Notes: generated from the sequence alone by a model not told the origin. A stretch of 64,000 bases of DNA from Vicinamibacterales bacterium (GCA_035550595.1 DASZOV010000124.1:11135-75134), one strand, 5' to 3'; shown: positions 2,105 through 58,630, numbered from the stretch's first letter. A program made the numbers and translations.

Positions 2105-2390
2105 CGCCAGTCATCTTCTTTTGCAGTGGCGCGGGGCCCGGCGCTCGCGTGTCATCTTCTTTGCAATGCGCTGGGGCCCCACCCCCAGCGCTACGCGCTT
2201 CGGCGCCCTCACTATGCTCGCCAGTCATCTTCTTTGCAATGCGTTGGGGCCCCACCCCCAACGCTACGCGCTTCGGCGCCCTCACTACGTTCGGGGCCTT
2301 GCGGTGTCATCTTTTCTTAAATACCCTTCTTCGCGCCTTCGCGTGAGCCCCTTCCGTCCCCTTCGCGATCTTCGCGTCTTCGCGCGAGGC
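2105..2390 (+). repeat. Composite intergenic repeat, copy A: four GTCATCTT boxes, two covarying GC hairpins, UUCG hairpins and a TTCGCG module
   Basis: GTCATCTTC boxes at 2110, 2151, 2224 and 2306. Hairpins at 2168-2191 and 2241-2264. Module cttcgcgatcttcgcgtcttcgcgcgagg at about 2360-2389. Related copies at 34862-35080 and 58631-58853, with a fragment at 53398-53465. Confidence 0.85.
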
Positions 2391-3367
2391 TACTTCTTCG
2401 CCAGATTCGCGAGCGGCACGCTCGCCAGCGTGAACGGCGTCGTCTCCGTGTGCGCGTCGCGCGTGTTGAACTGGGTGTTGACGACGATGAGCCGGTCGCC
2501 GACCTTGGCGGCGGTTGCGGGCCAGGCGAGCGCGGGATCCTTGAAGCGCGAGACGACAGTCCCCGTCGAGAAGTCGCTCGAAAGCTGGACCGTCGCGATC
2601 TCGACGGCCGTCTGCCGCACAGCGTAGAGCGTGTGGTCGTCGAGGACGAGACCGTCCATGCCGGTCAGGTCCGCGCCGCCCGTGTCGATCGCGCTCACAG
2701 CTTTGGTCGCCAGGTCGATGCGGAACAGCAACCCCTTCCCCATCTGCGCGACGATGAGCGACGCGTTGTCGGGCGTGACGGCGATGCCGTTCAGGTTCGC
2801 GCCCGAGTCGTACTGCAGCACCGTGTGATTGAAGTTCAACCACGGCTCGAGGTCGCCAATCGTCTCGCCGTGCGCCTCGAGACGCCAGAGCGTCGGCGCC
2901 TGCGTGTCGGTGAAGTACGCGGCCGAGCCGACGAGCGCGACGTCGTTGATGAGGCTGCCCGACGGGTCCGGCACCTCGACCTGTTTCAGCACGTGGCCCG
3001 TGCGTGCGTCGAGGACGAACATGCGTCCGGTCTTGCCGCCGGCAATCCACAGTCGATGGCTGGCGTCGATCTTCATGCCGAGGATGGCCGGAAACGCGGG
3101 CGTGGATCCGGCCGGGATGAGGACGCCTGCCGGCGCGACAGTTTCGGAGGCGCGCGTCTCGAGGTTCACGCGCACGACCGTCCCCGTTGCCGCGCTGGCC
3201 GTATAGAGCACTTGTTGCGCGGGATCGTAGGTCACGCCTTCGGGGAACGTGACGTCCGCGGGTAACGCCACGCGATCGACGCGGCCGGCCTGATTGGCCT
3301 GTCGCGCGACGACGAACGGCGTGCTCACGAGAACGGCGATCGCCAATGCGGTCGGCCAACGCGTCAT
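2390..3367 (-). CDS. Secreted beta-propeller protein, SMP-30/gluconolactonase/LRE-like
   Basis: Start chosen at MTRWPTALAIAVLVSTPFVVA (signal peptide), inside the longer ORF 2390..3595. Repeated strand-rich segments typical of six-blade propellers. Confidence 0.6.
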   Translation of the reverse strand: MTRWPTALAIAVLVSTPFVVARQANQAGRVDRVALPADVTFPEGVTYDPAQQVLYTASAATGTVVRVNLETRASETVAPAGVLIPAGSTPAFPAILGMKIDASHRLWIAGGKTGRMFVLDARTGHVLKQVEVPDPSGSLINDVALVGSAAYFTDTQAPTLWRLEAHGETIGDLEPWLNFNHTVLQYDSGANLNGIAVTPDNASLIVAQMGKGLLFRIDLATKAVSAIDTGGADLTGMDGLVLDDHTLYAVRQTAVEIATVQLSSDFSTGTVVSRFKDPALAWPATAAKVGDRLIVVNTQFNTRDAHTETTPFTLASVPLANLAKK

Positions 3368-3480
3368 GTCGGTACGCTCCTGAAACGGGATGCCCGCCGA
3401 CGACGCACACGTCGGATGCGCGCGTGGCGGGATGACGTCCAAGGCTAGCGCAGGCGGTGCGAGGCTGTCGACGGGATGAA

Positions 3481-3513
3481 AACTTCGAACTTCGAACTTC
3501 GAACTTCGAACTT
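3481..3513. repeat. Tandem heptamer array (AACTTCG)x4 plus a partial unit
   Basis: aacttcgaacttcgaacttcgaacttcgaactt read directly, in a divergent promoter region. Confidence 0.95.
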
Positions 3514-3563
3514 GGGATGCAGACAGGGCAAGGGCGGCCCTTGCCGACGACTGGCGATCTGTG

Positions 3564-3585
3564 CATATAGTGATATCGCTATATG
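3564..3585. promoter_or_regulatory. AT-rich 22-bp near-perfect palindrome, candidate ArsR/SmtB operator overlapping the arsR-like start codon
   Basis: catatagtgatatcgctatatg is self-complementary except for one symmetric pair of positions. The ATG of the ArsR-like gene is at 3583. Confidence 0.55.
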
Positions 3586-3927
3586 GCCACGCCACTCCAA
3601 GAGGCGAAGAGCGAGCTCTTCCGCGCCCTCGCCCATCCGACGCGCATCCGCCTGCTCGAGCAACTCGTCGGCGGCGAACGTACCGTCCAGGATCTGCACC
3701 AGGCGCTCCACGTTGGCCAGCCGCTCGTGTCCCAGCACCTCGCCGCGCTCCGCGCCCGCCACGTCGTCGTCGTCCGCCGCGAAGGCGCGCAGGCCTACTA
3801 CGCGCTGCGCAGCCCGCTCGTGGCCGACCTCCTGACGGTCGCGCGTGAGCTCCTGACGAACACGTTGTCCGATCAGCGGTCCATGCTCCGCGAACTGCAG
3901 CGGGAACGCCGCCGCGCCGCGCTGTGA
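3583..3927 (+). CDS. ArsR/SmtB family transcriptional regulator
   Basis: ELFRALAHPTRIRLLEQL ... VSQHLAALR winged-helix signature, 114 aa. Confidence 0.9.
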   Translation: MATPLQEAKSELFRALAHPTRIRLLEQLVGGERTVQDLHQALHVGQPLVSQHLAALRARHVVVVRREGAQAYYALRSPLVADLLTVARELLTNTLSDQRSMLRELQRERRRAAL

Positions 3928-7096: not shown

Positions 7097-7177
7097 GGGT
7101 TCCGGGGTTCCTGGTTGGAGGTTCCCGGGGTTCTCTGCTCGGGTTCCGGGGTTCGGGTTCCAGGTTCCGGGGTTCAG
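7097..7177. repeat. G-rich tandem array of GGTTCCGG-like 7-8 nt units
   Basis: ggttccggggttcctggttggaggttcccggggttctctgctcgggttccggggttcgggttccaggttccggggttcagg. It overlaps the stop codon of the minus-strand gene ending at 7174. Confidence 0.9.
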
Positions 7178-13450: not shown

Positions 13451-13485
13451 CGTTCGAAGTTTGAAGTTCGCAGTTCGAAGTTTGC
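13451..13485. repeat. Tandem heptamer array (GTTYGMA)x5, reverse orientation of the 3481 array
   Basis: gttcgaa gtttgaa gttcgca gttcgaa gtttgca, between convergent genes. Confidence 0.9.
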
Positions 13486-13492
13486 ATACCGC

Positions 13493-15015: not shown

Positions 15016-15347
15016 GCCCGAAAGCGCGCCCCCGTCGGCACGCTCGCGCGTCCCGCGCCACGCGCGGGCGCGCGAGCGGCGCGCGCTGGTCGGGCGACGT
15101 CACCGCACACAGCAACGCGCTGACGCTGGAGCCAGGCGTCTTCCGGCACTGGAGTGCCCGCGCCATTGCGGAGTCGCTGAAACGTTCGGCCGAACACAGC
15201 CGCCGTCGCAAGAGCTCACCCTACCGATCGGCGATGTCGATGCTCACCTTCTACATCAACCGCGCGGGCCGCAATCTTCCGGCGTCGCGCCGACGCACCC
15301 TCGTTCGCGCCAAGACCGAATTGCGACACCTGTTCAAACGCGACTGA
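15012..15347 (+). CDS. DUF3175 domain protein
   Basis: SNALTLEPGVF...IAESLKRSAEHSRRRKSSPYRSAMSMLTFYINRAGRNL matches my memory of the DUF3175 core. ATGA overlap with the YHS gene. Confidence 0.75.
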   Translation: MSPKARPRRHARASRATRGRASGARWSGDVTAHSNALTLEPGVFRHWSARAIAESLKRSAEHSRRRKSSPYRSAMSMLTFYINRAGRNLPASRRRTLVRAKTELRHLFKRD

Positions 15348-15367
15348 TACCAAAAACACGTTTTCAC

Positions 15368-15398
15368 AACTTCGAACTTCGAACGGCGAACTTCGAAC
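15368..15398. repeat. TTCGAAC heptamer array, left arm of an inverted pair
   Basis: aacttcgaacttcgaacggcgaacttcgaac. Confidence 0.9.
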
Positions 15399-15480
15399 GA
15401 ATGGGGCGCCTTCGGCGCGTCTTTTTGAATGTGAAACACGCCCCAATCGCGGGCGCCATGCACCGGGCATGCACCGTTTC

Positions 15481-15514
15481 AAGTTCGAACTTCGAAGTTC
15501 AAAGTTCAAAGTTT
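15481..15514. repeat. TTCGAAC/TTCAAAG heptamer array, right arm of an inverted pair
   Basis: aagttcgaacttcgaagttcaaagttcaaagttt is the reverse complement of the left arm with C-to-T changes. It abuts the stop codon at 15514-15516. Confidence 0.9.
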
Positions 15515-29304: not shown

Positions 29305-29334
29305 TTGACACGGCGTCAGGGCCACGGCCATAGT
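29305..29334 (+). promoter_or_regulatory. Sigma-70-like promoter TTGACA-N18-CATAGT
   Basis: Hexamers read directly. They lie just upstream of riboswitch stem P1. Confidence 0.5.
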
Positions 29335-29338
29335 GATG

Positions 29339-29515
29339 GCGCGCTGGTTTCCGGCACGGCCGGAATGAAAAGGGAACCCGGTGAAACTCCGGGGCTGCCC
29401 CGCAGCGGTCAACGAGAACGAACGCCGCACGTGCACTGGTCGTCACGACCGGGAAGCGCGGCCAGTAGGCGCCGGATCGATCGGCACGCTCGTGAGCCCG
29501 AAGACCTGCCCGCGC
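29339..29515 (+). promoter_or_regulatory. Cobalamin riboswitch aptamer (metE leader)
   Basis: aagggaacccggtgaaactccgg, ccgcagcggt, B12 box gcactgg...gggaagcg, 3-prime gcccgaagacctgcc. P1 is ggcgcg/cgcgcc. Confidence 0.88.
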
Positions 29516-29572
29516 CCGGTGTCGATCGACGCCGGTTTCGACCTGGAACGCCTCGTGGGAGGGCGGCTCCAC

Positions 29573-29739: not shown

Positions 29740-32058
29740 GTGCCTGTCCCGTCGACCTGTCTCGGCTTTCCCCGTATCGGACGCCATCGCGAGCTGAAAC
29801 GCGCGCTCGAAGCCTACTGGGCCGGCCGCGCGACCGCCGATCACCTACTCGACACGGCCGCGCACATCAGACGCGAACACTGGACCGCGATGCACGAGGC
29901 AGGTCTTCGCGAGGTGCCAGTCGGCGACTTCGCGCTCTACGACCACGTGCTGGACGCGGCGGTGCTCGTCGGCGCCATTCCGAGACGCTACACGGCCGTC
30001 GACGATCCACTCGCGCGCTATTTCGCCATGGCGCGCGGACTGCAGCGCCCGGATCTCGGCGTCGATCTCGCGGCGCTCGAGATGACGAAGTGGTTCGACA
30101 CGAACTACCACTACATCGTCCCCGAGATCGCGGCCGGCCAGACGTTCAGGCTCGATGCCGCATCGCTCTTCCAGCAGCTTGATGAAGCGCGCGCACTTGG
30201 CCTCGACGCTCGGCCGGTGCTCCTTGGGCCCGTGACGTTCCTGCTCTTGTCCAAGTCCGCGGAGAGCCACGCTCACGACGTCACGCCGCTCGATGCGCTG
30301 CCGGCGCTCCTGCCGATCTACGAGGCGTTGCTCAGTGAACTGGCGTCACGTGGCGTCACGTCCGTGCAGCTCGACGAGCCGTGTCTCGTGCTCGATCTCG
30401 ACGATCGCTCGCGCGCGGCCTGTCGCACGGCGTTCACCGCGCTCACGAACGTGCCTGGACGCCCGCGGCTGCAACTCACGACGTACTTCGGCGCGATCGA
30501 CGACAACCTCGAGCTCGCCCTCGCGTCGGGCTGCGACACGCTGCACGTCGATCTGACGCGCGGAGCCGCCGACCTCGAGACCGTCTTTGCGCGTCTGCCG
30601 CGCACGATGTCGTTGTCGATGGGCGTCGTCGATGGACGCAACATCTGGCGCACCGACCTCGACGCCGCGCACGCGCTCGTCCACCGCGCGGTCGAGACGC
30701 TCGGCGCCAATCGCGTCGCCGTCTCGTCCTCGTGCTCGCTCCTGCACGCGCCAATCGACCTCGTGTCCGAATCGCACCTCGACGCGGAACTGACGAGCTG
30801 GTTGGCGTTTGCCGTGCAGAAGCTGTCGGAGATCGCCGCTGTCGCCGACACGGCCGACGCTCCTGTCCCACCTGACACACCAGCCTTCACTGCCGCACGT
30901 GCGGCCCTCGCCAGCCGTCGCGCCTCGCCACGAACGAAACGGCCGGAGGTCCGAGCGCGAGCTGCTGCCGTCGATGCGTCGATGGAGCGCCGCAGCGAGC
31001 CCTTCCCCGCTCGCGCGGCGAAACAGGCTGCGCGTCTGCACCTCCCGCTGCTGCCGACGACGACCATCGGGTCGTTTCCGCAGACACGCGAGGTCCGCGA
31101 TGCGCGGGCGGCCTGGCGGGACGGACGCATGAGCGGTCCTGACTACACGCGCTTCCTTCGGGACGCCATTCGCGCATGTGTCGAGCGGCAGGAGGCCATT
31201 GGCCTCGACGTGCTCGTCCACGGCGAGTTCGAGCGGACCGACATGGTCGAGTACTTCGGCGCCGAGCTCGACGGCTTCGCCTTCACCGAGAACGGTTGGG
31301 TCCAAAGCTACGGCTCGCGCTCCGTCAAGCCGCCCGTGCTCTACGGCGACGTCATTCGCCGGCGGCCGATGACCGTCGACTGGTCGCGCTTCGCCCAGTC
31401 GCTCACCACGCGGCCGATGAAGGGCATGCTGACGGGCCCGGTCACGATTCTCCAATGGTCGTTCGTGCGCGACGACCAGTCGCGCGCCGAGACCTGCCGT
31501 CAGATCGCGCTCGCGCTTCGCGACGAAGTCGCCGATCTCGAAACCGCCGGCCTGGCCATCGTGCAGGTCGACGAGCCAGCCATTCGCGAGGGACTCCCGC
31601 TCCGCCGGCACGATCGGCCGGCGTATCTCGACTGGGCGGTCGCCGCCTTCCGGCTCGCGACGAGCGGTGCGGCATCCGACACGCAGATTCACACGCACAT
31701 GTGCTACTCGGAGTTCGGCGACATGCTACCGGCCATCGCGGCCATGGACGCCGACGTCCTGTCGATCGAAAGCTCGCGGTCGCGCATGGAGCTCGTCGAG
31801 GACTTCGCCACGTTCAGCTATCCCAACGCGATCGGTCCAGGCGTGTACGACATCCACTCGCCGCGCGTGCCGACCGTCGACGAGATTAGTGCGCTCCTCG
31901 AGCGTGCCGCCGCGGTCATTCCCATCGAGCGGCTCTGGGTGAATCCGGACTGCGGCCTGAAGACACGCGGCTGGACGGAGGTCGAGGCAGCGCTCGCCAA
32001 CATGGTCGCCGCCGCCCGGCGCAAGCGCGAAACGCTGGCACTCACTCCGCGCGCATGA
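29740..32058 (+). CDS. metE: Cobalamin-independent methionine synthase
   Basis: [20 protein letters not shown], two homologous halves, C-terminal HMCYSEF Zn site. Start moved to GTG 29740, 9 nt after AAGGAG; the ORF-track start is 29722. Confidence 0.93.
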
Positions 32059-34783
32059 CGACCATCGCGTCGACCTCTGTCGCACGCCGCGCCGGCCACC
32101 AGGCGGCAACGAGCGCGGCGACCGCGACAACTCCTCCGACGACGATGTAGGTCAGGGGATCGCCGGGCCGTACCTCGTACAACCATGCGGTCAGTGTGCG
32201 TGAGGCGCCGAGCGAGATCGCGAGGCCCACGACGAGGCCGACCATCGTCAATCCGAACGCACGGCGCACGATCATCGCGCGCACGGCCGCGGGGCTGGCG
32301 CCGAGCGCCAGCCGAATGCCGATCTCGCGCCGCTCCTGCGCGACCGCGTAGGAGAGCGCGCCGTACAGACCCAGCAGCGCGACGAGAAACGCCGTCGCGG
32401 CGAACGCGACACAGATGGTCAGCATGAAGCGTCGCCAGGCCAGCCACTGCCCCGTGACGTCGTCCATTGTCGAGAACTCGGTCGGCAGTTCGGGATCGAT
32501 CGCGCGCACGATCGCGCGCGCCGGCGCGGCCAGCATCGCGGTCGTGCCGGTCGTGTGCATCACGATCGACAGCGTGCGATCCGGACGCTGGCGATAACAC
32601 GTGTAGACGATCGCCCGCGGCGGCGTGTCGAGTCCCTCGTCGCGGACGTCGCCGACGATGCCGACGATCGTCAGCGGCCGAAGATCGCCGTCCATGTTGC
32701 CGAAGTCGATGCGCTGGCCAATCGGATCCTGTCCGGGCCAGCGCGAGCGCGCCAGCGACTCGCTGATGAGCGCGACGTGTGGCGCGGCCAACGTGTCACG
32801 TTCGTCGAACAGCCGGCCGCGCACGAGCGGAATGCCCATCGCGCGAAAGTAACCCTCGCTCGCCACGCGGTAGCCGGCATACCCGCCCGGCTGATTCGGG
32901 TCGCTCCAGATGTGCCAGAGCGATGACAGATCGCGACGTGCGATGGCGGCGCCAAACGCCGACACGTCCGACGTGCCCGTGAACACGAGAAAGCCGCCGC
33001 TGGCCGTATTGCCCGTGAGAGGCATCGCGTCGACGACACCGACCGCGTCGGCGCCCGGCATCGATCGCAGCCTGGCGGCGATCTCGTCGACCTGCTGCAC
33101 ACGCCGGGCTTTCGCGCCGTCGTCGGCTTCCGGCGGAAAGAAGCCGTGGTCCTCGACCGGCGGCTGGTACAACCGGATCGCCGCGACGCCGTCAGATCGA
33201 AAGCCCGGGTCGGTGTCGACGAGTCGCATCAGGCTGCGGGTCAACAGTCCCGCTCCAACGAGCAACGCGACGCTTGCCGCGAGCTGACCGACGACGAGCA
33301 CACCCCGCAGACGATGCGACGTCACGGCGCGCGTGGCGCCGGGCTCCTGACGCAGTGCGGCGGTCCCAACGGCCGAGGTTGCACGCCAGGCAGCCAGACC
33401 ACCGACCACCAGTCCGACAACGGCAGCAGCGGCAAGAACTGCGAGGACGACGGGCCAGGCGACGTCGAGCTCGCCGGCCCGCGGCAGCATACGTGGCGCG
33501 GTGACGCGAAGCACGTTCGTACTCCACACGGCCACAGCCACCGCCAACACGCCGGCGGCCAACGCCATGAGCAGCGTCTCGACGCCGATGTGCCGCACGA
33601 TGCGCCAGCGGCCGGCGCCAAGCGCCAGCCGCAGCGCCACTTCACGGCCGCGCGCGGCGGCCCGCGCGAGGAGCAGATTGAGGACGTTCGCGCAGACGAT
33701 GAGCAGCAGGAACGACGCAGCACCGAGGAGCATCCAGAGCGCCGGACGCACGTCGCCGACGAGATGGTCCTGCAGACGCGTCACGTCGGCGTCTCGCATG
33801 CTGGTGTCCGAGCCGTACTGGACGGCGAGGCGTCGAGCGATCGACGACAGATCGTCGCGGGCGCGTTCCAGAGAGACGCCGGGAGCCAGCCGGCCGAGTG
33901 CGTAGGAATTCCGTCCTGTTCGGCCCGAGGGATGTTCGCGCCACTGCTCAGTCGACGCCCAGATGTCCGTGCCCGCGGGAAACGCGAACCCCGTCGGCAT
34001 GACACCGACGACCGTACACAAGACGTCACCAACCCGCAGGGCCGCGCCGGCGAGATCGGCCCGGTCGCCGAAGTGCTCTCGCCAGAAGGCGGCGCTCACG
34101 ACGGCCACCGGCGGCGCGCCGAAATGCGACTCGGCGGGAAGAAACGCGCGGCCGCGCGACGGCTGCACGCCGATGACGTCGAAGAATGGCTGAGAAACGG
34201 AGGCGACGCTCGCGAGCAGCGCCTCGCCGCCCACCATGATCGACACGCGGTCGCCATTCTGATACTGGGCGAACACCGACAGACTGTGATTCTGCGCGCC
34301 GAGATCCTCGAAATTCGGATCCGACACCATGACGCGCGCACCCTTCGCCGTCAGTTCGGAGACCTGCACGATGCGGCTCGCGTCTGGATATGGCAGCGGC
34401 CGCAGCAGGACGTCATAGACGACGGTGAAGAGGACGGCACCGGCGCCGAGCCCCATGGCCAGCGTCAGCACGACGACGGCGGCGAACCCCGGCGTCCGGC
34501 GGAGCCCACGCCAGCCGATCCGCACGTCGCGTGCGACGTCGTCGACAAGCGGCAGCCCGCGGCGTTCGCGCACGGCCTCGATGGACGGCACGAGCGCACC
34601 GACGCGACCGACGGCCGCGCGTCTCGCGGCCTCCGGACTGTAGCCGTGCCGCTGCAGCCGTTCGGCTTCGAGATCGAGGTGCAGCCGCAGCTCGTCCTCG
34701 AGATCACGATCGGCCCGCGCCGGCCGCAGCGTGTTCCACAACCGCGCGAGCCACGCCCGAACGGCACCGGAACTCGACCGCAT
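32042..34783 (-). CDS. ADOP-family duplicated FtsX/MacB-like permease
   Basis: 913 aa. N-terminal [21 protein letters not shown] and two MacB-PCD/FtsX halves. No adjacent ATPase. Confidence 0.85.
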
Positions 34784-34861: not shown

Positions 34862-35080
34862 GCCCTGTCATCTTCTTTGCAGCGGCGCGGGGGGCCGCTG
34901 TCGCTCTCTTCGGTGCAGCGAGGTCTGCGCGGCGTGACAGTCGTCTTCTTTGCAGTGGCGCGGGGCCCCACCCCCGCGCTACGCGCTTCGGCGCCTCACT
35001 ACGTTCGGGCCTTGCGGTGTCATCTTTTTTCATTTGGTTTGCATTGTCCCCCTTCGCGATCTTCGCAACTTCGCGTGAGG
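34862..35080 (+). repeat. Composite intergenic repeat, copy B
   Basis: GTCATCTTC-type boxes at 34867, 34940 and 35019. Hairpin 34958-34979. gcgcttcggcgc follows. Module ccttcgcgatcttcgcaacttcgcgtgagg at 35051-35080. Confidence 0.85.
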
Positions 35081-35112
35081 CTTCCAGCCTGTCCTTTTTT
35101 TCTCGTTCTGCC

Positions 35113-35141
35113 TTGACATCCCCTCCCCCCAGCCCCAATAT
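35113..35141 (+). promoter_or_regulatory. Sigma-70-like promoter TTGACA-N17-CAATAT
   Basis: Hexamers read directly, about 8 nt upstream of riboswitch P1. Confidence 0.5.
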
Positions 35142-35148
35142 CTAGGCC

Positions 35149-35336
35149 ATCATGGTCGTCCGACCCCACGATGTCGGGCGTGAAGAGGGAATCCGGTGCG
35201 CCGCTCGGGCGGCAAAGCCGGAGCTGACTCCGCAACTGTAAGCGGTGAGCCGTTCGTCGATGTTCTGCCACTGGCCTCGTGCCGGGAAGGCTGGACGAGA
35301 CGGTGACGACCCGCGAGCCAGGAGACCTGCCGTGAT
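35149..35336 (+). promoter_or_regulatory. Cobalamin riboswitch aptamer (nrdAB leader)
   Basis: gaagagggaatccggtg, ccgcaactgtaagcgg, B12 box gccactgg...gggaaggc, 3-prime gccaggagacctgcc. P1 is atcatgg/ccgtgat. Confidence 0.88.
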
Positions 35337-35446
35337 CGAAAGCACGTCCTCGGGCGGGGTGCCCCGAGCGGCGCGATGGCCGTGCCGGCCCTGGCACGGC
35401 GTCGCGTAGTCGTCTCGCGCACCGTCCGCCCCATCGGAGGTTCGCG

Positions 35447-38281
35447 ATGTCTCAGTCGGCTGCGCTCGTCTCGTCTCCACCCGCCGGAATCCCTGCCGCG
35501 CCGCCACCCGCGGCCGCGCCTGCGCTCTACGTCATTCGCCGCATGGGCACGCGTTCGCCATGGGACGCGACGAAGATCGCCGCGGCCATGACCAAGGCGT
35601 TCCTTGCCGTCGAAGGCGAGGGCGCGTTGGGATCGACGCGGGTCCACGAGGTCGTCGCCGCGCTGACACGGCAGGTGGCCGACTCGCTCGAGCGGCGGTC
35701 GGACGGCTCACGCGCGCTGCACATCGAAGACATCCAGGACCAGGTGGAGCTGGCGCTGATGCGCGCCGGACACCACAAGGTCGCGCGCGCCTATGTGCTC
35801 TATCGCGAGTCGCGCGCCGAAGCGCGCCGTGCCGCGGCCGAGACGACGCCGCGTGCGTATCGCGTCCGACAGGTGGACGGCACGCTCGTGCCGCTCGATC
35901 GTGAGGCCTGGCGGCGGAGTCTCGAGGCGGCCTGCCGCGGGCTCGCATCGGTGTCGGCCGATCGCGTGCTCGAGACCGCCGAACCGAACATCTACGACGA
36001 GATCGCCGAAGCCGACCTGATGGTCGCCTCCACGCTCGCGGCCCGCGCGCTCATCGATCGCCAGCCGGAATACACCTACGTCAGCGCGCGTCTCCTGCTC
36101 GCGTCGCTCGCGGTCGAAGCGCTCGGCTTCGTCCAGGGCGAAGCGCCGAGCCCGATGGCGTTCAGCATCGATCGACTCGAGGACGAATACCGGGCCTACT
36201 TCCCCGCGTACATCCAGCGCGCGATCGATCTCGAGCTGGCCGCGCCTGAGCTCGCCTCGTTCGATCTCGATCGACTGGCCGCCGCGATCCGCCCCGAGCG
36301 CGATCGGCAGTTCCAACTGCTGGGCCTGCAGACGCTCTACGATCGCTACTTCCTGCACCACGACGGCGTGCGATTCGAGCTGCCGCAGGCCTTCTTCCTG
36401 CGTGTGGCCATGGGCCTGGCACTCAACGAGCCGGACCGCGAGGCGCGTGCCATCGAGTTCTACGACCTGCTGTCGTCGTTCGACTTCATGTGCTCGACGC
36501 CGACGCTCTTCAACGCGGGCACGCGTCGGCCGCAACTCTCGTCGTGCTTCCTCACGACGGTGAGCGACGACCTCCCGGGCATCTTCAAGGCCATCAGCGA
36601 CAACGCGCTGCTCTCGAAGTACGCCGGCGGGCTCGGCAACGACTGGACGCGCGTGCGCGGCCTCGGTGCGGCCATCAAAGGCACCAACGGCCGCTCCCAG
36701 GGCGTCGTTCCTTTCCTGAAGATCGCGAACGACACGGCCATCGCCGTCAACCAGGGCGGCAAGCGCAAGGGCGCGGTGTGCGCGTATCTCGAGGTGTGGC
36801 ACGTCGACATCGAGGAGTTCCTCGACCTGCGCAAGAACACGGGCGACGACCGCCGGCGCACGCACGACATGCACACGGCAGCCTGGATTCCCGATCTCTT
36901 CATGCAGCGCGTCGAGGCCGACGCGGAATGGACGTTGTTCTCGCCGGACGAAGTGCCCGACCTGCACGATCGCACCGGCTGCGCATTCGCGGAGGCGTAT
37001 GTCGCCGCCGAGGCACGCGCGGACCGCGGCGAACTGCGCGTCTTCCGCCGGATGCGCGCCGTCGATCTCTGGCGCCGGCTTCTGACGATGCTGTTCGAGA
37101 CGGGGCACCCGTGGGTGACGTTCAAGGACGCGTGCAATCTTCGCTCGCCGCAGCAGCACACCGGCGTCGTCCACTCGTCGAATCTGTGCACCGAAATCAC
37201 GCTCAACACGTCGGACGAGGAAGTCGCCGTGTGCAATCTCGGGTCGATCAACCTCGCCGCGCACGTCACGCCCGACGGACTCGACGAGGCGAAGCTCGCG
37301 CGGACGGTGGCGACGGCCGTGCGCATGCTCGACAACGTGATCGACGTGAACTTCTACACGATTCCCGAGGCGCATCGATCGAACGTGCGCCATCGGCCGG
37401 TCGGCCTCGGCCTCATGGGCTTCCAGGACGCGCTGCACACGCTCCGTGTGCCCTACGCGTCGGATGCGGCCGTCGCCTTTGCCGACACGAGCATGGAAGC
37501 GATCGCCTTCCATGCGATCGCGGCGTCCGCGGATCTGGCCGCCGAACGCGGCCGCTATGCGTCGTTCGACGGCTCGCTCTGGAGCCAGGGCGTGCTGCCG
37601 ATCGACTCACTCGATCGGTTGGCCGAGGCGCGCAATCCCGGCGATCTCGAGGTCGATCGCTCGCGCCGCCTCGACTGGGACGCGCTGCGAACACGCGTGC
37701 GCACGGGCGGCCTGCGCCACTCGAACATCATGGCGATCGCGCCGACCGCGACGATCTCGAACATCTGCGGCGTCAGCCCGTCGATCGAGCCGACGTTCCA
37801 GAACCTCTACGTCAAGGCCAACATGTCGGGCAACTTCACGGTCGTCAATCACGCACTCGTGCACGACCTCGAAGCGCGCGGCCTGTGGGACGACGTGATG
37901 GTCAACGATCTCAAGTACTACGACGGGAGCCTGGCCGCCATCGCGCGCGTGCCACGCGATCTCGCTGAGCTCTACGCGACGGCGTTCGAGATCGATCCCG
38001 AATGGCTCATTCGTGCGGGCGCGCGGCGACAAAAGTGGATCGACCAGGCTCAGTCGCTCAACCTATACGTCGCCGAGCCCAGCGGACGCCGGCTCGATGC
38101 CATCTACCGCCTCGCGTGGCGATCGGGACTGAAGACGACGTATTACCTGCGGTCTCGAGGCGCGACACACGTCGAGCGCAGCACGCTCGACGGACCGGAT
38201 CGACGGTTGAATGCCGTCGCCGTTCCCACGAACGGTGCAACGTGCACGCTCGGCGATCCGAACTGCGAGGCCTGCCAGTGA
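35447..38281 (+). CDS. nrdA: Class I ribonucleotide reductase large subunit with N-terminal ATP-cone
   Basis: 944 aa. ATP-cone ([20 protein letters not shown]), catalytic core (SSCFL, NLCTEI, C-terminal CxxC tail [12 protein letters not shown]). GGAGG SD upstream. Confidence 0.92.
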
Positions 38282-47799: not shown

Positions 47800-50574
47800 T
47801 CAGTCCGCACGCAAGGTCTCGATCGGATCGATGCGCAGCGCGCGCACCATCGGCCGCGCGGAGGCGAGCAGGCTGCTGATGACGATGGCGGCTGCAGCGA
47901 TGGCCAGTGTCGCGGGATCGTGACTGCGTGCGCCGTACAGGAATCGATCGGCGAACCGGCCACCCCACCAGGCGAGTAGAACGCCAGCGGCGAGACCGGC
48001 TGTGAGCGGCCGCGCAACGCGCGCAAGAATTGCGGCCGTCACATGCCGCGGCCGGGCGCCGAGCGCCATCCGCACACCGACCTCCTTCCGGTCGCGAACG
48101 ACGACCGAGGACACAAGGCTGTAGACGCCGACGATCGTCAGCACCAGCGCGAGCGCGCCGAGCAGCGTGAGCAGCGCGCGCCCCAGCCGCTGCGGCATCA
48201 GCAAGTCGTCCACCGCCTCACCCACCGTTCGCACCGACTCCACGGAGAAGCCGGCGTCTCGCGCGAACTTCGTGACGGTCGGCACGAACGCGGCGTCCCC
48301 GCTCGTCCGAATGACGACGGGGGCACGCCCACTGCCTGCAGTCAGTCCGGCGAGGAACGCCCGGTTCTGCGATGGCGCCCGATAGATGACGAGCGGCGCC
48401 GTGTCGCGAAGATCGTGCAGAGTGACGTCGGCCGCGACGCCAATCACCAGCGCCGGCGTGCCGGCGAACGAGCGGATCGTCGACGCCGTCAGGTGGTGTC
48501 CGACCGCCGCGCTGTGCGGCCAGAATGCGTGCGCCGCCGACGCGCTCAGAATGACGACGGGTTCTGTACTCTCGGCATCGCTGTCGTTGAATTCCCGCCC
48601 CTGCAGGATGGGCTGCTGAAGCGTTCGAAAATAGTCAGCGGCGGCGTAGGTCTCCACGACAGGTGCGGACGGTGTCGTCGGGACGCCGTCGACGGCCACG
48701 TGTTCGACCGGAAAGTCGAGAAGGTTCACGAGCGGCACCATTCCATCCGTCGCCGCTACGACTCCCGGGAGCTGGCGCACGGCCGCGACGAAGGCATCCG
48801 TCTTCGCCAGCCCGGCGAAGCGGTCGCCGCCGCGGTCTTTGGTCGAAAGCGAGACCGCCAACAGACCGTCGGGGTTGAAGCCAGGATCGATCGCGAGTGC
48901 CGAGACCATGGTCCTCACGAACAAGGCGGCCGCGAAGACGAGCACGACGCCAATCGTGGCTTGCGCACCGACGAGGACGCGTGCCATGTCGAAGCGTCCG
49001 ATCACCGGTCGATGGCGCTGGCCACCGGCGGTCAGGCGCCAGCGCGTCACTCGCGTCGCCGGTGCGATCCCGATCAACACGGCGGCGGCGACGGCCAACG
49101 GTGCCGTCCAGCACAGCACGCGGGATGCGCTCATCGGTGGCAGCGTCGAGACGCTGATCGCACCCGGAAGCACGAAGGCGCTGAACGCGCGTTCGATCCA
49201 TTGCGCCACGACGACCGCGGCCAGTCCCCCGGCGGCCGCGATCACGGCGGCTTCGGCCACGATCGGCCGGATGAGCCGCGCCCGGCTCGCACCGAGCGCC
49301 GCGCGGACGGTGATTTCCTCGTGCCGTTCGTCGACGCGTGCGGCGAGCATGCTCGCGAGATTGGCGCAGCCGAGGAGCAGCGTCAACGCCACCGCGGCGC
49401 CGAGGACAGTCATGAACTGACGGACGGTGGATCTGGCGTCGAGCGGCAGGACCGTGTCGACGAGCGGCACGAGGCGCCAGGAAGCCGCTATCGGTCGATT
49501 CTCAATCACCCCGTTCGCGACGAGCGACGTCAGTTCCGCCTGCGCCGGAGCCAGGCGTTCAGCGGCGACACGCGCGATGACCACGAAGTCCGTGAGAGGC
49601 GACACGTCGGAGATCGTCATCGATGTCGTCGCACCTTGCACGGGCGAGAACATCCCGCCATGCCCGTCGGTCTCGTATCCAGGGCCGACCGCCAGCCGCG
49701 CGCCGGCCATGACCGGCAAGAACACGGCTGGCGGGGTGGCGTCGATTTCCACGTCGGTGAACGTCGCGGGCGCGACGCCGACGATCGTCGTCTGCACGCC
49801 GTTGACGGAGATCGTGCGACCGACCGCCGCCGGATCGGCGGCGAACCGCCGGCGCCAGAACGCGTGGCTCAACACGGCCACGGGCGGCGCAGCCGCATCG
49901 TCCCGTTGCCCGGCGAAGTCGCGCCCGACCGCCATGTCGACACCCAGGACGCGGAAGAAATTGGACGAGACGAACCGGCCGTCCACGGCCTCGGCGGCAG
50001 CGTCGCCGGGCCCAGCCACGACGATCTGACGCGTCGCCGGATCTGCCGCGCGCGTGACGACGGCCACGTCGTCGACCGTACGCATGTTTCGAATGGCCTC
50101 GACGTTCGCCCACCACGTGTAGGTATACGGCGTCGACTTGCCTCGAATGGATATCGTCCGCTCGAACACGAACAGCTGGTCCGGATCGCGGACGTCGAGC
50201 GGGTGCAGCAGAATGCGATCGATGAGCGTGAAGATGGCGAGGTTCGCGCCGACCGCGAGCGCCAAGGTCACGACCGCGCCAATCGCGAACGCCGGCGAGT
50301 GCCGCAGCCGGCGCAGCGCATCGCGCACGTCCTGGACGAGCGCGCCGGCCGTCGATTCCCAACCGATGTCGCGCGCGTAGTCTTTCACCGCCTCGACGCT
50401 GCCCACGTCCAGGCGCGCCGCGCGTTCGGCGTCGCGCAGTCCCAATCCCAATCGCCCGTGCGCCCGCTTCGCCTCTTCGAGATAGCTCGCGAGTTCCTCG
50501 TCGAGCGCCTGCTCGGCGTCATCCCGCCGACGCCACGCCCGCCAGCCGCCGATGAAGCGCGAATACCAGGACAT
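47800..50574 (-). CDS. ADOP-family duplicated FtsX/MacB-like permease (tandem paralogue 2)
   Basis: 924 aa. The N-terminal ~140 aa are nearly identical to the upstream paralogue. Confidence 0.85.
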   Translation of the reverse strand: MSWYSRFIGGWRAWRRRDDAEQALDEELASYLEEAKRAHGRLGLGLRDAERAARLDVGSVEAVKDYARDIGWESTAGALVQDVRDALRRLRHSPAFAIGAVVTLALAVGANLAIFTLIDRILLHPLDVRDPDQLFVFERTISIRGKSTPYTYTWWANVEAIRNMRTVDDVAVVTRAADPATRQIVVAGPGDAAAEAVDGRFVSSNFFRVLGVDMAVGRDFAGQRDDAAAPPVAVLSHAFWRRRFAADPAAVGRTISVNGVQTTIVGVAPATFTDVEIDATPPAVFLPVMAGARLAVGPGYETDGHGGMFSPVQGATTSMTISDVSPLTDFVVIARVAAERLAPAQAELTSLVANGVIENRPIAASWRLVPLVDTVLPLDARSTVRQFMTVLGAAVALTLLLGCANLASMLAARVDERHEEITVRAALGASRARLIRPIVAEAAVIAAAGGLAAVVVAQWIERAFSAFVLPGAISVSTLPPMSASRVLCWTAPLAVAAAVLIGIAPATRVTRWRLTAGGQRHRPVIGRFDMARVLVGAQATIGVVLVFAAALFVRTMVSALAIDPGFNPDGLLAVSLSTKDRGGDRFAGLAKTDAFVAAVRQLPGVVAATDGMVPLVNLLDFPVEHVAVDGVPTTPSAPVVETYAAADYFRTLQQPILQGREFNDSDAESTEPVVILSASAAHAFWPHSAAVGHHLTASTIRSFAGTPALVIGVAADVTLHDLRDTAPLVIYRAPSQNRAFLAGLTAGSGRAPVVIRTSGDAAFVPTVTKFARDAGFSVESVRTVGEAVDDLLMPQRLGRALLTLLGALALVLTIVGVYSLVSSVVVRDRKEVGVRMALGARPRHVTAAILARVARPLTAGLAAGVLLAWWGGRFADRFLYGARSHDPATLAIAAAAIVISSLLASARPMVRALRIDPIETLRAD

Positions 50575-50603: not shown

Positions 50604-53345
50604 CTATTCCGACCGCAGTGTCTCGATCGGATCGATACGCAGGGCTCGCCGCATCGGCGCCACTGCCGCGAACACGCCGCCCACGATGATCGCGACGACC
50701 GCAATCGCCGTCGTCGTCGCATCGTCACCGTGTAAGCCGTACAGAAAGCGATCCGCGAAGCGCCCGCCCCACCAGACGAGCAGGACGCCGACCGTGACGC
50801 CGGCGGCAATTGGCGCGACCGTGCGGATCATGATTTCCCGGACGATGTGGCCACGGCGCGCGCCAAGGGCCAGGCGCACGCCGATCTCCTTTCGATCGCG
50901 ACTGACGATGGACGAGACCAGGCTGTAGGCGCCGATGAGAGTCAACACCAGAGCGAGCGCCGCGAGCAGCGTCAGCAGTTCGCGGCCCAACCGTTGTGGA
51001 AGGAGAAGCGAGGCGATCGCGCTGTCGACCGAACGCACCGAATCGAGCCGGGAGCCGGTCGCCGCCGCGGCGGCCTTGAGCATGGGCACGACAGGCCTGG
51101 AATCCCCGCTCGTCCGCACGATGGCCCGCGTCACGCCATGGTGGAACCTCGAATAGACGACAAGGAAATAGGGGTTCTGTGACATCGGGCGATAGATCAC
51201 GAGCGGCGCGGTGTCGTGCAGATGGTGCAGCGCGACGTCCGCCGCGACGCCGACGACGACCATCGTATTGCCCTGAAAACTCACCTGGTGCCCAAGGGCG
51301 TCGTCGTTCGGCCACAACAGACGAGCCAGCGACGCGCTCACCACGGTAACCCGGCGCGCTTTGGGCCCATCCCGGTCGTCGAATCCACGCCCACGCAGTA
51401 CGGCCTGTCGCAGGGTCTGGAAGTACTCGTCCGAGACGTTGACGTCGTCTGGCGGCACTGGCAGAGTGACGGGGACCCCGTCCGCCTGGACTTGAAGCAC
51501 GGCGAAACCCAGGTCGTCGACGATCGGCGCCTCGCCGGCGGCCGCGTCCGTCACGCCGGGCAGATGCCGCGCTCGCTCGGCGAAGGCATCGGCCGCCGTG
51601 GCGCCCGCACGCCAGTCGCCACCCTGCACCGACAACGACACGGAGAGGAGATGGTGCGGATCGAATCCGAGATCCATCGTCAGGGCCTTCGTCATGGTCC
51701 GCGAGAACAGAACGGCACCGAACACGAGGACCACGCTGATGGCCGCTTGCGTGGCAACGCACAGGCGGGTCGCACGCAGTCGCCTGGTCGCACCGCGCTG
51801 GCCTTGCATCCCAGGCGTCGGATCGGCGCCGACCGCGCGCGCTGCTGGCATGCACATGACCACCGCGGCGGCGATCATCATCACGACGGCGAGCCCAAGA
51901 TGGCCGCTGTCGTCCGCACGCAAGGCGGCAATGGCCACGCCGTCCGGCAGGACGAAGGTCGCGAGGCTGCGTTCGATGGCCTGCGCCACCAGAGCGGCCA
52001 CCATTCCCCCGCTTGCCACCAGCAGGCCGGCCTCTACGATGATGGGTTGAACGAGCCGGCCGCGACTGGCCCCGAGCGCGGCCCGAATCGCCAGCTCCGG
52101 CCGCCGCCCTTCGACGCGCGCGAGCATCAGGCCGGCCAGATTGGCACATCCGATGAGCAGCGTCAGCGCGACCGCCGCCGCCAGCAACCACACAAAGGTT
52201 CGAACATCCACCTGCGTATCGCGCGTGTGAGAAGAACGGATGCCGCCGGGCAACACGACATCCGCCAGGGGCACGATCGACCAGACCTCGTCGGGCACGC
52301 GAACGTCGAACGTGCCGGAATTGCGAAGGACCTCCAATTCCGCGCGCACGAGCCTTTCACGGCCGGCCGCCACGCGCGCGATGACCGTGAACGCGGACAA
52401 TGGTGTCACGGCCGGGGCCGTCGGCGAGGTCTCGCCGGCCGGCTTCGCACCAGGATCGGTGGCGAGTCGAGAACCGGCCAGGACTGGCAGAAACAGGGCG
52501 GGCGGATTCGTCCCGACCCACACGTCCGCGAACGTCGGTGGCGCGACGCCGACAATCGTCGTGGGCACGCCGTTGACTGTCATCGTTCGTCCGACGATGG
52601 TCGGATCCGCGCCAAATCGGCGGCGCCAGAATGCGCTGCCCAGCACCGCAGCCGGCGGCGCTCGTGGATCGTCCTGTTGAGCGGCGAAGTCGCTGCCGAG
52701 CGCCATCTCGACGCCCAGGACGCGGAAGAAGTTGGCCGAGACGAACCGGCCGTCCACGGTCTCCTCGGCCCGATCGTCCGGACCTGCAATGACGAGATGA
52801 CGAGTGGCCCGGTCGGTGGCCCGCGTGACCACGGCAGCGCCAGCGACTGTACTCATGTGCCGGAGGCGATCGGCGTTCGACCACCAGGTGTCCGACAGAG
52901 GCGTCGCTTCGCCACCAATAACCATCGTCCGCTCGAACACGAACAACTGGTCCGGATCGCGCACGTCGAGCGGGTGCAGCAGGATGCGATCGATGAGCGT
53001 GAAGATGGCGAGGTTGGCGCCGACCGCGAGCGCCAAGGTCACGACCGCGCCGATCGTGAACGCCGGTGAGTGCCGCAGCCGCCGCAGCGCGTCGCGGACG
53101 TCCTGGACGAACGCGCTGGCCGTCGATTCCCAACCGACGTCGCGCGTGTAGTCTTTCACTGCCTCAACGCTGCCCACGTCCAGTCGCGCCGCGCGTTCGG
53201 CGTCGCGCAGTCCCAGCCCCAGACGCCGGTGCGCGTCCCTCGCCGCCTCTAGATAGCTCGCGAGCTCGTCGTCGAGATCCTGCTCGGTGTCGTCCCGCCG
53301 TCGCCACGCGCGCCAGCCGGCGACGATGCGCGAATACCAGGACAT
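50604..53345 (-). CDS. ADOP-family duplicated FtsX/MacB-like permease (tandem paralogue 1)
   Basis: 913 aa. Same architecture, with a 29-nt gap to paralogue 2. Confidence 0.85.
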   Translation of the reverse strand: MSWYSRIVAGWRAWRRRDDTEQDLDDELASYLEAARDAHRRLGLGLRDAERAARLDVGSVEAVKDYTRDVGWESTASAFVQDVRDALRRLRHSPAFTIGAVVTLALAVGANLAIFTLIDRILLHPLDVRDPDQLFVFERTMVIGGEATPLSDTWWSNADRLRHMSTVAGAAVVTRATDRATRHLVIAGPDDRAEETVDGRFVSANFFRVLGVEMALGSDFAAQQDDPRAPPAAVLGSAFWRRRFGADPTIVGRTMTVNGVPTTIVGVAPPTFADVWVGTNPPALFLPVLAGSRLATDPGAKPAGETSPTAPAVTPLSAFTVIARVAAGRERLVRAELEVLRNSGTFDVRVPDEVWSIVPLADVVLPGGIRSSHTRDTQVDVRTFVWLLAAAVALTLLIGCANLAGLMLARVEGRRPELAIRAALGASRGRLVQPIIVEAGLLVASGGMVAALVAQAIERSLATFVLPDGVAIAALRADDSGHLGLAVVMMIAAAVVMCMPAARAVGADPTPGMQGQRGATRRLRATRLCVATQAAISVVLVFGAVLFSRTMTKALTMDLGFDPHHLLSVSLSVQGGDWRAGATAADAFAERARHLPGVTDAAAGEAPIVDDLGFAVLQVQADGVPVTLPVPPDDVNVSDEYFQTLRQAVLRGRGFDDRDGPKARRVTVVSASLARLLWPNDDALGHQVSFQGNTMVVVGVAADVALHHLHDTAPLVIYRPMSQNPYFLVVYSRFHHGVTRAIVRTSGDSRPVVPMLKAAAAATGSRLDSVRSVDSAIASLLLPQRLGRELLTLLAALALVLTLIGAYSLVSSIVSRDRKEIGVRLALGARRGHIVREIMIRTVAPIAAGVTVGVLLVWWGGRFADRFLYGLHGDDATTTAIAVVAIIVGGVFAAVAPMRRALRIDPIETLRSE

Positions 53346-53397: not shown

Positions 53398-53465
53398 GTC
53401 ATCTTCTCTTGATCCACTAGATGACCGTCGCAGTCTTGCGCCGTTCATCTTGATTGTCAAGATGA
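53398..53465. repeat. Fragment of the GTCATCTTC repeat family forming two hairpins
   Basis: gtcatct...agatgac (53398-53425) and tcatcttga-ttg-tcaagatga (53445-53465), downstream of nagA on the minus strand. Confidence 0.7.
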
Positions 53466-57866: not shown

Positions 57867-57891
57867 TCACGCGAAGCCGCGAAGTCGCGAA
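57867..57891 (-). repeat. Inverted copy of the TTCGCG module of the composite repeat
   Basis: tcacgcgaagccgcgaagtcgcgaa is the reverse complement of 58825-58850 apart from a 1-nt indel. Confidence 0.85.
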
Positions 57892-57910
57892 AACTGGGAG
57901 GAGCACTCAC

Positions 57911-57957
57911 GAACTTGGAACCCACTTCTGGCTTCTGGCTTCGAACTTCCAACTTGA
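57911..57957 (+). repeat. TTCTGGC/TTCGAAC short-repeat block (partner at 62181-62214, inverted)
   Basis: The core ttctggcttctggcttcgaacttc at 57926-57949 is identical to the reverse complement of 62191-62214. Confidence 0.9.
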
Positions 57958-57968
57958 CGCGTATGGCG

Positions 57969-58612
57969 TCACAGCCCTGTGACGGTGATTTCGGCCACGA
58001 CCGTCTCGCCGCTGACCTTGTCGGTCGCGACATTGATCTGCTGGCGTACGCCGTCTTTCGCCACGACGTTCGTCGTGATGCGGTAGGAGCGGAAGACGGG
58101 CGCGGTGACGCCAGCCGTCGGATCTTGCGTCCCGTTGGCGTCGGCGACCGACGAGTCGTCGAGGATGAACCGCACGTGGTAGTGGCCATCGGCCGCTGCG
58201 GCGACGTAACAGTCGATGTTCGTGCCGACGTTCTGATAGTTGACCGTCGTGATCGGGGTGGCCGCGTTCGGTCCCATCTGGCCGACCATCGGCACGGGAA
58301 CATTCGATCCGAGCCGCAGACTCAGGCCGTTCATGCCCATGCCATCGCCGGTCTCGCCGACCAGCGTGTACGGCAGGCTGCTGACGATCTGATCGCCTTT
58401 CTTGCGTTGGATCAGAACATCGACCCGTACCGGTCGCGCTTCGATCGGCGCCGAGGTGCGCGTCGTCTTCGCGGGCGCAGGCGCCACGGCGGGCTGAGGC
58501 GCCGCGGCCGGCTTGGGCGTCGACGCGGCGTCCCCTTGCCGCGCGATTGCGACGATCGAATCCGCGCCGGCCAGCAGCGCACACGTCAGGATCAGGACAG
58601 AGAACCGGCGCA
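57969..58612 (-). CDS. Secreted hypothetical protein with Pro/Ala-rich linker
   Basis: Start at MRRFSVLILTCALLAGA. 213 aa. No family recognised. Confidence 0.55.
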
Positions 58613-58630
58613 TATGAGGACCTCCTAGAC

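Follow-up and report, generated by a model that had tools for sequence, protein, structure and literature searches.

A lineage-restricted modular intergenic repeat of a Vicinamibacterales-like bacterium ends in a heptad arm of a family spanning many prokaryotic phyla

A stretch of 64,000 nucleotides from a Vicinamibacterales bacterium (GCA_035550595.1, DASZOV010000124.1:11135-75134), hereafter the window, carries three copies of a composite intergenic element that is built from hairpin-bearing units and closed by an arm of tandem heptamers. This composite is a real, previously undescribed modular repeat; it is a non-coding intergenic element, it is not a known RNA, and it is restricted to a single acidobacterial (Vicinamibacterales-like) lineage. 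The 30 nt at its end are a solo heptad arm of a family that spans many prokaryotic phyla, and it is this arm family, with its tie to genes for GxxExxY proteins, that most needs explaining. The modules and their order, the distribution of the copies, the lineage restriction, the identity of the arm with those around GxxExxY genes and the retention of the hairpin are matters of direct observation. Tentatively, we read the composite as a non-autonomous, selfish derivative of a heptad-arm cassette resembling an intervening sequence (IVS), in which the hairpin units have been amplified; this may well be the right explanation, and it is held here as a working one.

The three copies, which lie in one orientation (2105-2392, 34862-35084, and 58631-58855) as the original prediction proposed, are far beyond chance. 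The box GTCATCTTCTTTGCA, allowing up to three mismatches, has eight matches in the window against 0.62 expected, six of them inside the three loci, and the 30-nt 3′ module CCTTCGCGATCTTCGCNNCTTCGCGTGAGG has three matches against none expected. A mechanical repeat search recovered the same families, including a 73-nt tandem unit in copy 1 (2143-2215/2216-2288, 93% identical) whose spacing is present in copy 2 as well, and TRF described the copy-1 unit with a period of 73, 2.0 copies, and 94% matches. In addition, a covariance model built from 14 aligned units, and run unfiltered over the whole window, matched at the composite loci only and always on the + strand (2224, 2151, and 34940 at E ≤ 2e-20; 34867 at E = 8e-4; 58633 at E = 2e-3; 2110 at E = 0.03). 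The order of the modules is common to all three copies, as had been claimed, and every stem listed in the original prediction is present where it was placed, and pairs. Overlooked at that stage were a degenerate second arm at 2326-2347 and an opposite-orientation partner arm at 57867-57893. A fourth copy, proposed as a fragment at 53398-53465, is excluded from the family because its covariance-model E-value of 8.7 (7.1 bits) and its box, with three mismatches, are at chance level. This segment holds two short palindromes (GTCATCT...AGATGAC and CATCTTGAttgTCAAGATG) directly upstream of a minus-strand gene start, and it resembles an operator more closely than it does this repeat.

Read on the + strand, each copy runs through one to three tandem units of ∼73 nt, a truncated box (GGTGTCATCTTTT), a spacer that varies from 22 to 44 nt and in copy 1 contains the second short arm, and the terminal arm. 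A unit comprises the box, a first hairpin (H1) with a GC stem and the loop CCCCAC, a second hairpin (H2) of the form GCGC-TTCG-GCGC, and CTCACTnnGnTCG. The terminal arm CCTTCGCGATCTTCGCnnCTTCGCGTGAGG, 30 nt long and present in all three copies, contains CTTCGCG three times at 8-9 nt spacing, followed by TGAGG. The 15-nt box is conserved without any pairing. That the element lacks coding capacity, terminal inverted repeats and target-site duplications had been suggested from the start, and all three statements hold, the last at the composite boundaries and by inspection with the eye only: the 73-nt unit and the 1-nt indels between copies leave no conserved reading frame, and no complementarity links the box end to the arm end. 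An ATG within the box does open frames, yet these differ among the copies. Intrinsic terminators and sigma-70 promoters sought inside the element did not rise above the shuffled expectation.

Elsewhere, nhmmer matches to the unit were confined to two short contigs of the same species and locus, L101 (GCA_964544615.1) and L102 (a JGI metagenome), and to the metagenome-assembled genome (MAG) CALFMR01, which is labeled 'uncultured Acidobacteria bacterium'; with the latter, copies of the element are not restricted to the region in which they were first seen. L101 and L102 encode a protein identical to the ABC-3 protein beside copy 1, and both break off within the repeat, which is what a multi-copy element should cause in a short-read assembly. 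CALFMR01 has units at the loci L012, L026, L052, L057 (two composites), and L071, and arms without units at L002, L020, L021, L036, and L058. In all eight arm-bearing composites of the window and CALFMR01 the arm stands on one and the same side, and therefore the composite is one evolutionary unit that includes the solo arm. At L012 (2311-2404, 2448-2470) a solo CTTCGCG arm was also observed 43 nt downstream of tRNA-Ser(GCT).

Searches in other directions delimit this distribution. Among named organisms, the ABC-3 protein has its nearest relatives in Vicinamibacterales (75% identity), and ∼78 kb from relatives with a 73-75% identical ABC-3 protein held neither a unit nor a CTTCGCG arm; at these homologues the orthologous site is not syntenic downstream, and no empty site was found. 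Exact look-ups of three other window proteins returned no match, and neither did a blastn search of plasmids with copy 1. In IMG/VR an 18-mer of the unit gave 29 matches, all of them chance in GC-rich coding DNA and none matching the hidden Markov model of the unit. A gapped pattern joining the box to the UUCG hairpin had no match among metagenome contigs, a collection that evidently lacks this lineage, because L102, a JGI contig, should have matched. Regarding known RNAs, the Rfam scan, with the Acido-1 and Acido-Lenti-1 motifs included, gave no match for the element at gathering or E-value thresholds: two cobalamin riboswitches alone passed the gathering threshold in the window, the best copy 1 matches under the E-value threshold had E ∼1-3, and only tRNAs passed on 18 related loci. 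A Pseudomon-Rho match on the arm was set aside as noise (17.3 bits against a gathering score of 45).

The arm has a far wider distribution. Its pattern TTCGCGATCTTCGCNNCTTCGCG, with 21 specified bases, was searched in a 596 Gb genome collection, in which ∼0.3 matches are expected by chance according to our own arithmetic under an assumed uniform base composition, and this core is exact in at least 100 contigs. Among the matches listed are Planctomycetota, Verrucomicrobiota, Acidobacteriota, Chloroflexota, Cyanobacteria (Microcoleus), Hydrogenedentota, Desulfuromonadales, Alpha- and Gammaproteobacteria, Gemmatimonadota, and methanogenic archaea; a few matches fall in coding DNA, and these are probably chance. 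What comes directly after the arm is TGA in 43 cases and GTT, GTG, or GTA in another 43, and among the 107 occurrences listed an inverted GCGAAG-type arm lies within 150 nt upstream in 32 and downstream in four. Paired arms fold into near-perfect stems of 25-45 bp that close on a short loop or on a small gene, typically one for a GxxExxY protein, and the spacers between the heptads are often non-complementary between the two arms, so that conservation seems to apply to the heptad itself. Around 18 complete arm elements no target-site duplication was found, as their flanking direct repeats of 0-1 nt equal those of shuffled pairs, and the literature search found no paper with the arm strings. 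An integron attC-like reading of the ..AAC/GTT.. ends was dropped, given that the other subfamily ends in ..TCAC/GTGA.. and that an open reading frame (ORF) lies inside the arms. The arms of the three window copies belong to this family in that each has at least three tandem heptads of the CRCNRAG type at 8-9 nt spacing. No GCGAAG cluster that could act as an inverted partner lies within 3 kb of copies 1 and 2; copy 3 has a possible partner at 57867-57893 (18/18 matching bases).

At two loci with arms ∼470-490 nt apart, the enclosed ORF matches TIGR04256, 'GxxExxY protein' (E = 1.7e-38 and 6.4e-35). A jackhmmer search over all ORFs of 100 arm loci then gave five GxxExxY genes (L008, L028, L060, L068, and L080), each situated exactly between two arms and flanked by the same 21 specified bases: the 5′ arm reads (T/A)(T/A)CAC or AAC followed by three CGCGAAGn, and the 3′ arm three nCTTCGCG followed by GTT or TGA. 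An attempt to measure Pfam enrichment among neighbor genes of the 100 arm loci was abandoned, as crude ORF calls in high-GC DNA were mostly spurious. As a control for the bias of starting from the arm, 80 metagenomic GxxExxY loci were collected by protein similarity alone. At least three tandem heptads occur within 160 nt upstream in 54 of 78 such loci and within 200 nt downstream in 53 of 77, on both sides in 40 of 75 and on either side in 64 of 75; an equal stretch of the gene interior has them in none of the 80. The two flanks are complementary: their median local score is 35, where mismatched pairs reach 17, and 35 of 79 loci lie above the 99th percentile of the control. All these heptads fit the consensus CRCNRAG (CACAGAG, CACGAAG, CGCAGAG, CACCAAG, CGCAAAG, CGCGAAG).

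Other cargo also stands between arms, such as a protein gene at L005 whose product appears lipoprotein-like by eye. No GxxExxY ORF was found in the window by jackhmmer, and the ORF between the arms of copy 3 has no Pfam match. Our search of the literature on GxxExxY, PDDEXK_3, and TIGR04256 found nothing linking these proteins to flanking repeats; in a survey of the PD-(D/E)XK proteins, PF13366 is entered with no known function and with 'multiple transfers' between divisions. At L068, in a Desulfuromonadales MAG (∼2900-3900), three arm-bounded elements are adjacent, namely an ORF-less hairpin, a GxxExxY cassette, and a second hairpin. Outside the 5′ arm, two of these elements share an identical stretch of 30 nt, a sign that whole elements may have been duplicated locally.

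The system closest to these cassettes is the IVS of 23S rRNA. In Coxiella burnetii it has a 28-bp terminal stem around an ORF for the four-helix-bundle protein S23p, with three tandem GACAGAT heptamers at the 5′ side, the first of which is where RNase III cleaves (PMC4990558). The architecture, an inverted-arm stem around a small ORF, is that of the GxxExxY cassettes; both have three tandem heptamers in the stem (here CACAGAG/CGCGAAG), and the IVS is likewise regarded as selfish and sporadic across distant taxa (PMC4990558). However, the elements described here lie between protein-coding genes and not in rRNA, window copies 1 and 2 have one arm only, the composite has no ORF, and its 73-nt hairpin units are absent from the IVS. 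RNase III cleavage is known for the IVS of rRNA only. A second relative is the set of 'global regulator binding sites' of classes 1-3 in Geobacter metallireducens, read as IHF/HU sites by Aklujkar et al. (2009, PMC2700814): as set out in the passages of that paper on these sites, they are intergenic opposite-strand pairs of 3-5 tandem repeats of 7-9 nt, at variable distance and in tens of copies. They differ in their repeats (GTTGCTYN, TCTCCGTS, and MTYCTGA), and those passages report no link with GxxExxY genes or hairpin units. The third comprises the short tandem heptamer repeats (STRR; TAACTGA) of cyanobacteria and Beggiatoaceae, which are intergenic, occur in distant phyla without an evident means of transfer, and often stand directly before start codons; all are direct arrays, of another heptamer, and no inverted arms or enclosed genes are described for them (MacGregor 2015, PMC4679880). 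In view of these three descriptions, the arm family is best described as 'IVS-like' elements outside rRNA.

The composite also invites comparison with REP/BIME elements and MITEs, which are likewise short, non-coding, multi-copy, extragenic, and hairpin-containing, and break short-read assemblies. It differs from MITEs in having no terminal inverted repeats and no target-site duplication (formally for arm elements, by inspection for composites), and from REP/BIME in that its units, as in copy 1, follow one another head-to-tail with a 73-nt period and not as inverted REP pairs. With the Rfam result added, no match to a described REP, MITE, or non-coding RNA family emerged. A more specific version, in which a REP/BIME-type or IS200/IS605-derived (PATE) element is mobilized by a hairpin-recognizing Y1 transposase (RAYT/TnpA), would account for conserved-loop hairpins in extragenic positions without terminal inverted repeats or target-site duplication. 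It appears most improbable, given the direct tandem units, the lack of a GTAG-type 5′ tetranucleotide or of a conserved target tetranucleotide at the 5′ boundary, and the fact that no Y1 or other associated transposase was seen among the immediate neighbor genes, which were the ones scanned.

As an IVS-like derivative, the composite would have arisen along the following path. The ancestral cassette would have been an inverted arm pair around a small gene, typically one for a GxxExxY protein with a PD-(D/E)XK fold; one arm would have been kept and the cargo gene replaced or lost; and the 73-nt hairpin-bearing unit would have been amplified in tandem to 1-3 units. The element may then have spread by a mechanism that leaves no target-site duplication, typically settling past the stop of one gene and before the ribosome-binding site of the next, where it would usually be co-transcribed with its neighbors in the arm-to-box direction, i.e., on the minus strand of the window. 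Its hairpins may have been kept because the machinery for spreading or processing depends on them, or else because palindromes correct themselves. Several points weigh against this account. Mobility is not demonstrated, as no pair of empty and filled orthologous sites was found; the window lacks a GxxExxY gene, as noted above; no transposase or RAYT was seen, the Pfam scan for Y1 transposase covering the immediate neighbor genes only; and an RNase III-type stem cannot form at copies 1 and 2, because they have no partner within 3 kb. In addition, the identity of units in the window genome to those in CALFMR01 reaches 93%, which could reflect functional constraint rather than selfish persistence, and the frequently non-complementary arm spacers hint that the heptad is read by a protein, which the IVS-like derivation leaves unnamed.

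A broader claim, and a rather unlikely one at present, is that the CRCNRAG arms constitute a pan-prokaryotic IVS-like gene-cassette system outside rRNA, of which the composite is a lineage-specific non-autonomous derivative. If so, the arms would be recognized by a protein of their own, perhaps GxxExxY itself, or cut by RNase III, or both; cassettes with small cargo genes, for GxxExxY nuclease-fold and other proteins, would spread between phyla without target-site duplication; and the 73-nt units would be a structured leader for the downstream gene, as in the segment 57867-58851 with its gene for a secreted-looking protein.

That segment reaches into copy 3 (Table 1). The first 18 nt of the arm at its far end, the spacer CC included, are the exact complement of the copy 3 arm ∼930 nt away (18/18). 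The ribosome-binding site of the enclosed gene abuts the box end of copy 3, and its 214-aa product has an N-terminus that is signal-peptide-like as judged by eye; a consensus scan found no sigma-70-like promoter between copy 3 and this gene. The array GAAGTTnGAAGTTnGAAGCCAGAAGCCAGAAGTGGG is located 2-12 nt past the stop codons of two unrelated genes that each have a composite before them, namely this one (57969-58613) and, in L057, a gene of 322 aa; the L057 product has a signal-peptide-like start and resembles PD40/TolB, both judged by eye. In the window, and in the arm-to-box direction, the array at 57905-57957 is followed by the arm at 57867-57893, and therefore 57867-58851 may be one arm-bracketed cassette. 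In L057 (reverse complement) the 322-aa gene is followed by a module, CCCTGGGCCTGAAGGCCCAGGGCTCCACGGA, composed of a palindrome and a tail, which recurs in CALFMR01. Since in L036 this module directly precedes a CTTCGCG arm, arms terminate more than one kind of internal module.

Table 1. Coordinates of the composite copies, their parts, and the features associated with copy 3
Feature	Position	Strand	Remarks
Composite copy 1	2105-2392	+	Fills the whole spacer between two convergent stop codons
Degenerate first unit, copy 1	2110-2150	+	Box GTCATCTTCTTTTGCA and GC palindrome; 16.5 bits, E = 0.03
Unit 2, copy 1	2151-2223	+	Box 2151-2165; H1 2168-2176/2183-2191, loop CCCCAC; H2 2195-2206; 92.6 bits
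Unit 3, copy 1	2224-2302	+	Box 2224-2238; H1 2241-2264, variant GCGTTGGGG/CCCCAACGC; H2 2268-2279; 108.8 bits
Truncated terminal box GGTGTCATCTTTT, copy 1	2303-2315	+	
Extra short heptad arm CTTCTTCGCGCCTTCGCGTGAG, copy 1	2326-2347	+	Period-8 array 2329-2385
Terminal heptad arm CCTTCGCGATCTTCGCGTCTTCGCGCGAGG, copy 1	2360-2389	+	
Composite copy 2	34862-35084	+	Terminal box 35016-35028; arm 35051-35080
Diverged unit, copy 2	34867-34939	+	Stem CAGCGGC/GCCGCTG
Second unit, copy 2	34940-35015	+	H1 34958-34979; H2 34983-34994
Composite copy 3	58631-58855	+	Box 58633-58647; 21.2 bits, E = 0.002
Remainder of copy 3		+	Weak H1 58678-58694; diverged interior; terminal box 58781-58793; arm 58822-58851
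Opposite-type arm TCACGCGAAGCCGCGAAGTCGCGAAAA	57867-57893	+	Possible partner of the copy 3 arm
Gene for 214-aa protein	57969-58613	-	Between the two complementary arms; no Pfam match
Heptad array CTTCTGG/CTTCGAA/CTTCCAA	57905-57957	+	Just past the stop of gene 57969-58613

The genes flanking the window copies are housekeeping genes in convergent, divergent, and tandem arrangements, and they are unrelated to one another (ABC-3 permease, SGL propeller, MacB/FtsX, ribonucleotide reductase, and two unknowns). Copy 1 lies between the stops of the ABC-3 permease gene (1334-2104, +) and the SGL-propeller gene (2390-3595, -). Copy 2 separates divergent genes, with the start of a MacB/FtsX-type gene (32042-34783, -) on one side and, on the other, the ribonucleotide reductase gene, to whose promoter and cobalamin riboswitch (35136-35348) it is upstream; copy 3 is placed between two minus-strand genes. 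The two cobalamin riboswitches of the window are at 29328-29527 (113.6 bits) and 35136-35348 (121.3 bits), the latter beginning ∼55 nt downstream of copy 2 and preceding the gene for an ATP-cone ribonucleotide reductase (35447-38281). Considering the composites of the window and CALFMR01 in the arm-to-box direction, a gene ends beside the arm in six of eight and a gene starts within ∼120 nt of the box in seven of nine. The distance is 45 nt or less in five of them (copy 3, L052, both composites of L057, and L012), among which copy 3 and the two in L057 show a purine-rich stretch resembling a ribosome-binding site before the start. All four tandem-gene contexts are 'sense' in this direction; with p ∼0.06, the orientation bias is suggestive only.

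These contexts bear on the possibility, which stays on the doubtful side, that the composite is a cis-acting RNA carried in host transcripts from arm to box, where it would serve as a spacer or 5′ leader setting processing, stability, or translation downstream, with the arms as halves of an RNase III stem where a partner exists. Besides the gene ends, gene starts, and sense contexts just described, the lack of a sigma-70-like promoter between copy 3 and the abutted gene, the exact complementary arm beyond that gene, the pairing retained by H1, and the cutting of heptamer-repeat stems by RNase III in the 23S rRNA IVS (PMC4990558) are all consistent with it. On the other hand, the four sense contexts reach only the p-value given, and copy 1 and L071 sit between convergent genes with nothing downstream. 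At copy 2 and L026, TTGAC-type hexamers that could be promoters by eye occur between box and gene, and if they are real the element is upstream of the transcription start at both; the consensus scan called no promoter at copy 2, L026 being outside that scan. The weak global folds and the absence of covariation in H2, presented next, also argue against it.

The original prediction rested its structural argument on stem changes that preserve pairing. Over the 14 aligned units, with 500 shuffles and partner-sliding as controls, 90.1% of the H1 and H2 cells pair, against 81.0 ± 1.9% when shuffled and at most 58% with the partners slid, and both the percentage paired and the covariation score exceed 500 of 500 shuffles. 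Measures robust to relatedness do not: stem pairs changed on both sides number 4 against 3.9 in shuffles and further pair types 8 against 7.7, and the covariation term of RNAalifold is about zero (+0.2). There are about two independent paired-change events in the 14 units. In the first, a T:A pair has been gained or lost (GCGCTGGGG/CCCCAGCGC versus GCGCGGGG/CCCCGCGC), which in an alternating GCGC stem shifts the register and thereby mimics several covariations; it is a single old event, since each of the two genomes contains both forms. The second, a C:G to T:A change, is found in unit 2224 and its population variants; two mismatches and a single G-U pair were seen as well. In H2, the UUCG hairpin, no covariation was found and six cells among the 14 units are broken, its GCGC-UUCG-GCGC being intact in 11. 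Whole-element folds are unremarkable except for the + strand of copy 1 (z = -3.8; its minus strand, -1.8) and are weak for copy 2 (-1.8) and copy 3 (-1.3). Thus, the compensatory changes are real but few, and the central hairpin is kept paired, but the inference from these changes to selection on structure is weakly supported. Paired changes do not show selection on RNA, because hairpin-templated repair of a GC palindrome yields them too, and the evidence can separate neither an RNA from a DNA hairpin nor selection from hairpin-templated palindrome correction. Population variants were seen at the copy-1 locus, where the first full unit of L101 has the T:A stem form and L102 a loop one C shorter; these variants of 2151-2264 indicate that tandem units exchange or vary between samples.

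It is very unlikely that the + strand encodes a free-standing small RNA whose cUUCGg tetraloop and GC hairpin are selected for their RNA structure. GCGC-UUCG-GCGC is a canonical stable RNA tetraloop on the + strand only and has survived in most units, H1 is 90% paired, and the + strand of copy 1 folds well, as detailed above; but no conserved promoter or terminator accompanies the element, its upstream flanks are unrelated, the number of units varies, Rfam has no match, the robust covariation measures are not above their controls, and at copy 3 the + strand is antisense to both neighbors.

The conservation of the heptad sequence rather than of arm-to-arm complementarity, together with that of the unpaired 15-nt box, can be read differently, namely as a DNA-level platform in which the heptads, and perhaps the box, form site arrays for a nucleoid-associated or regulatory protein, as proposed for Geobacter metallireducens, where the same paired-array architecture comes with a suggestion of IHF/HU binding in the passages cited (Aklujkar et al. 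2009, PMC2700814). The other intergenic heptad arrays of the window fit this picture. We consider it unlikely all the same, as no binding protein is identified, the 8-9 bp period is out of helical phase, and neither the arms around GxxExxY genes nor the occurrence of the same arm across phyla is explained by it.

The window arrays in question are intergenic tandem AACTTCG/GTTCGAA heptamers in 4-5 copies each (3481-3513, 13452-13486, 15368-15398, and 15481-15513), which are a second heptad-arm family, with a different heptad, in the same genome; those around 15346-15513 are mutually inverted with a loop of ∼65 nt. A degenerate array of period 7 or 21 (GGGTTCG / GGTTCCGGGGTTCGGTTCCA), with ∼11 copies of the 7-mer, was observed at 7097-7175. 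Apart from these, the segments 47804-50000 and 50608-52749, ∼2.8 kb apart, are 72-76% identical over 115-300 nt (families D1, D3, and D7) and look like a tandem pair of paralogous genes, to judge from the sequence.

For the lineage itself, the composite is relevant to the annotation and assembly of Vicinamibacterales genomes, the latter because short-read contigs break in it. For the arm family, the tie between GxxExxY (PDDEXK_3) proteins, which are abundant and of unknown function, and a defined IVS-like architecture gives a testable handle on the role of these proteins, on the origin and movement of IVS-like elements, and on the recurrence of tandem heptamers across phyla.

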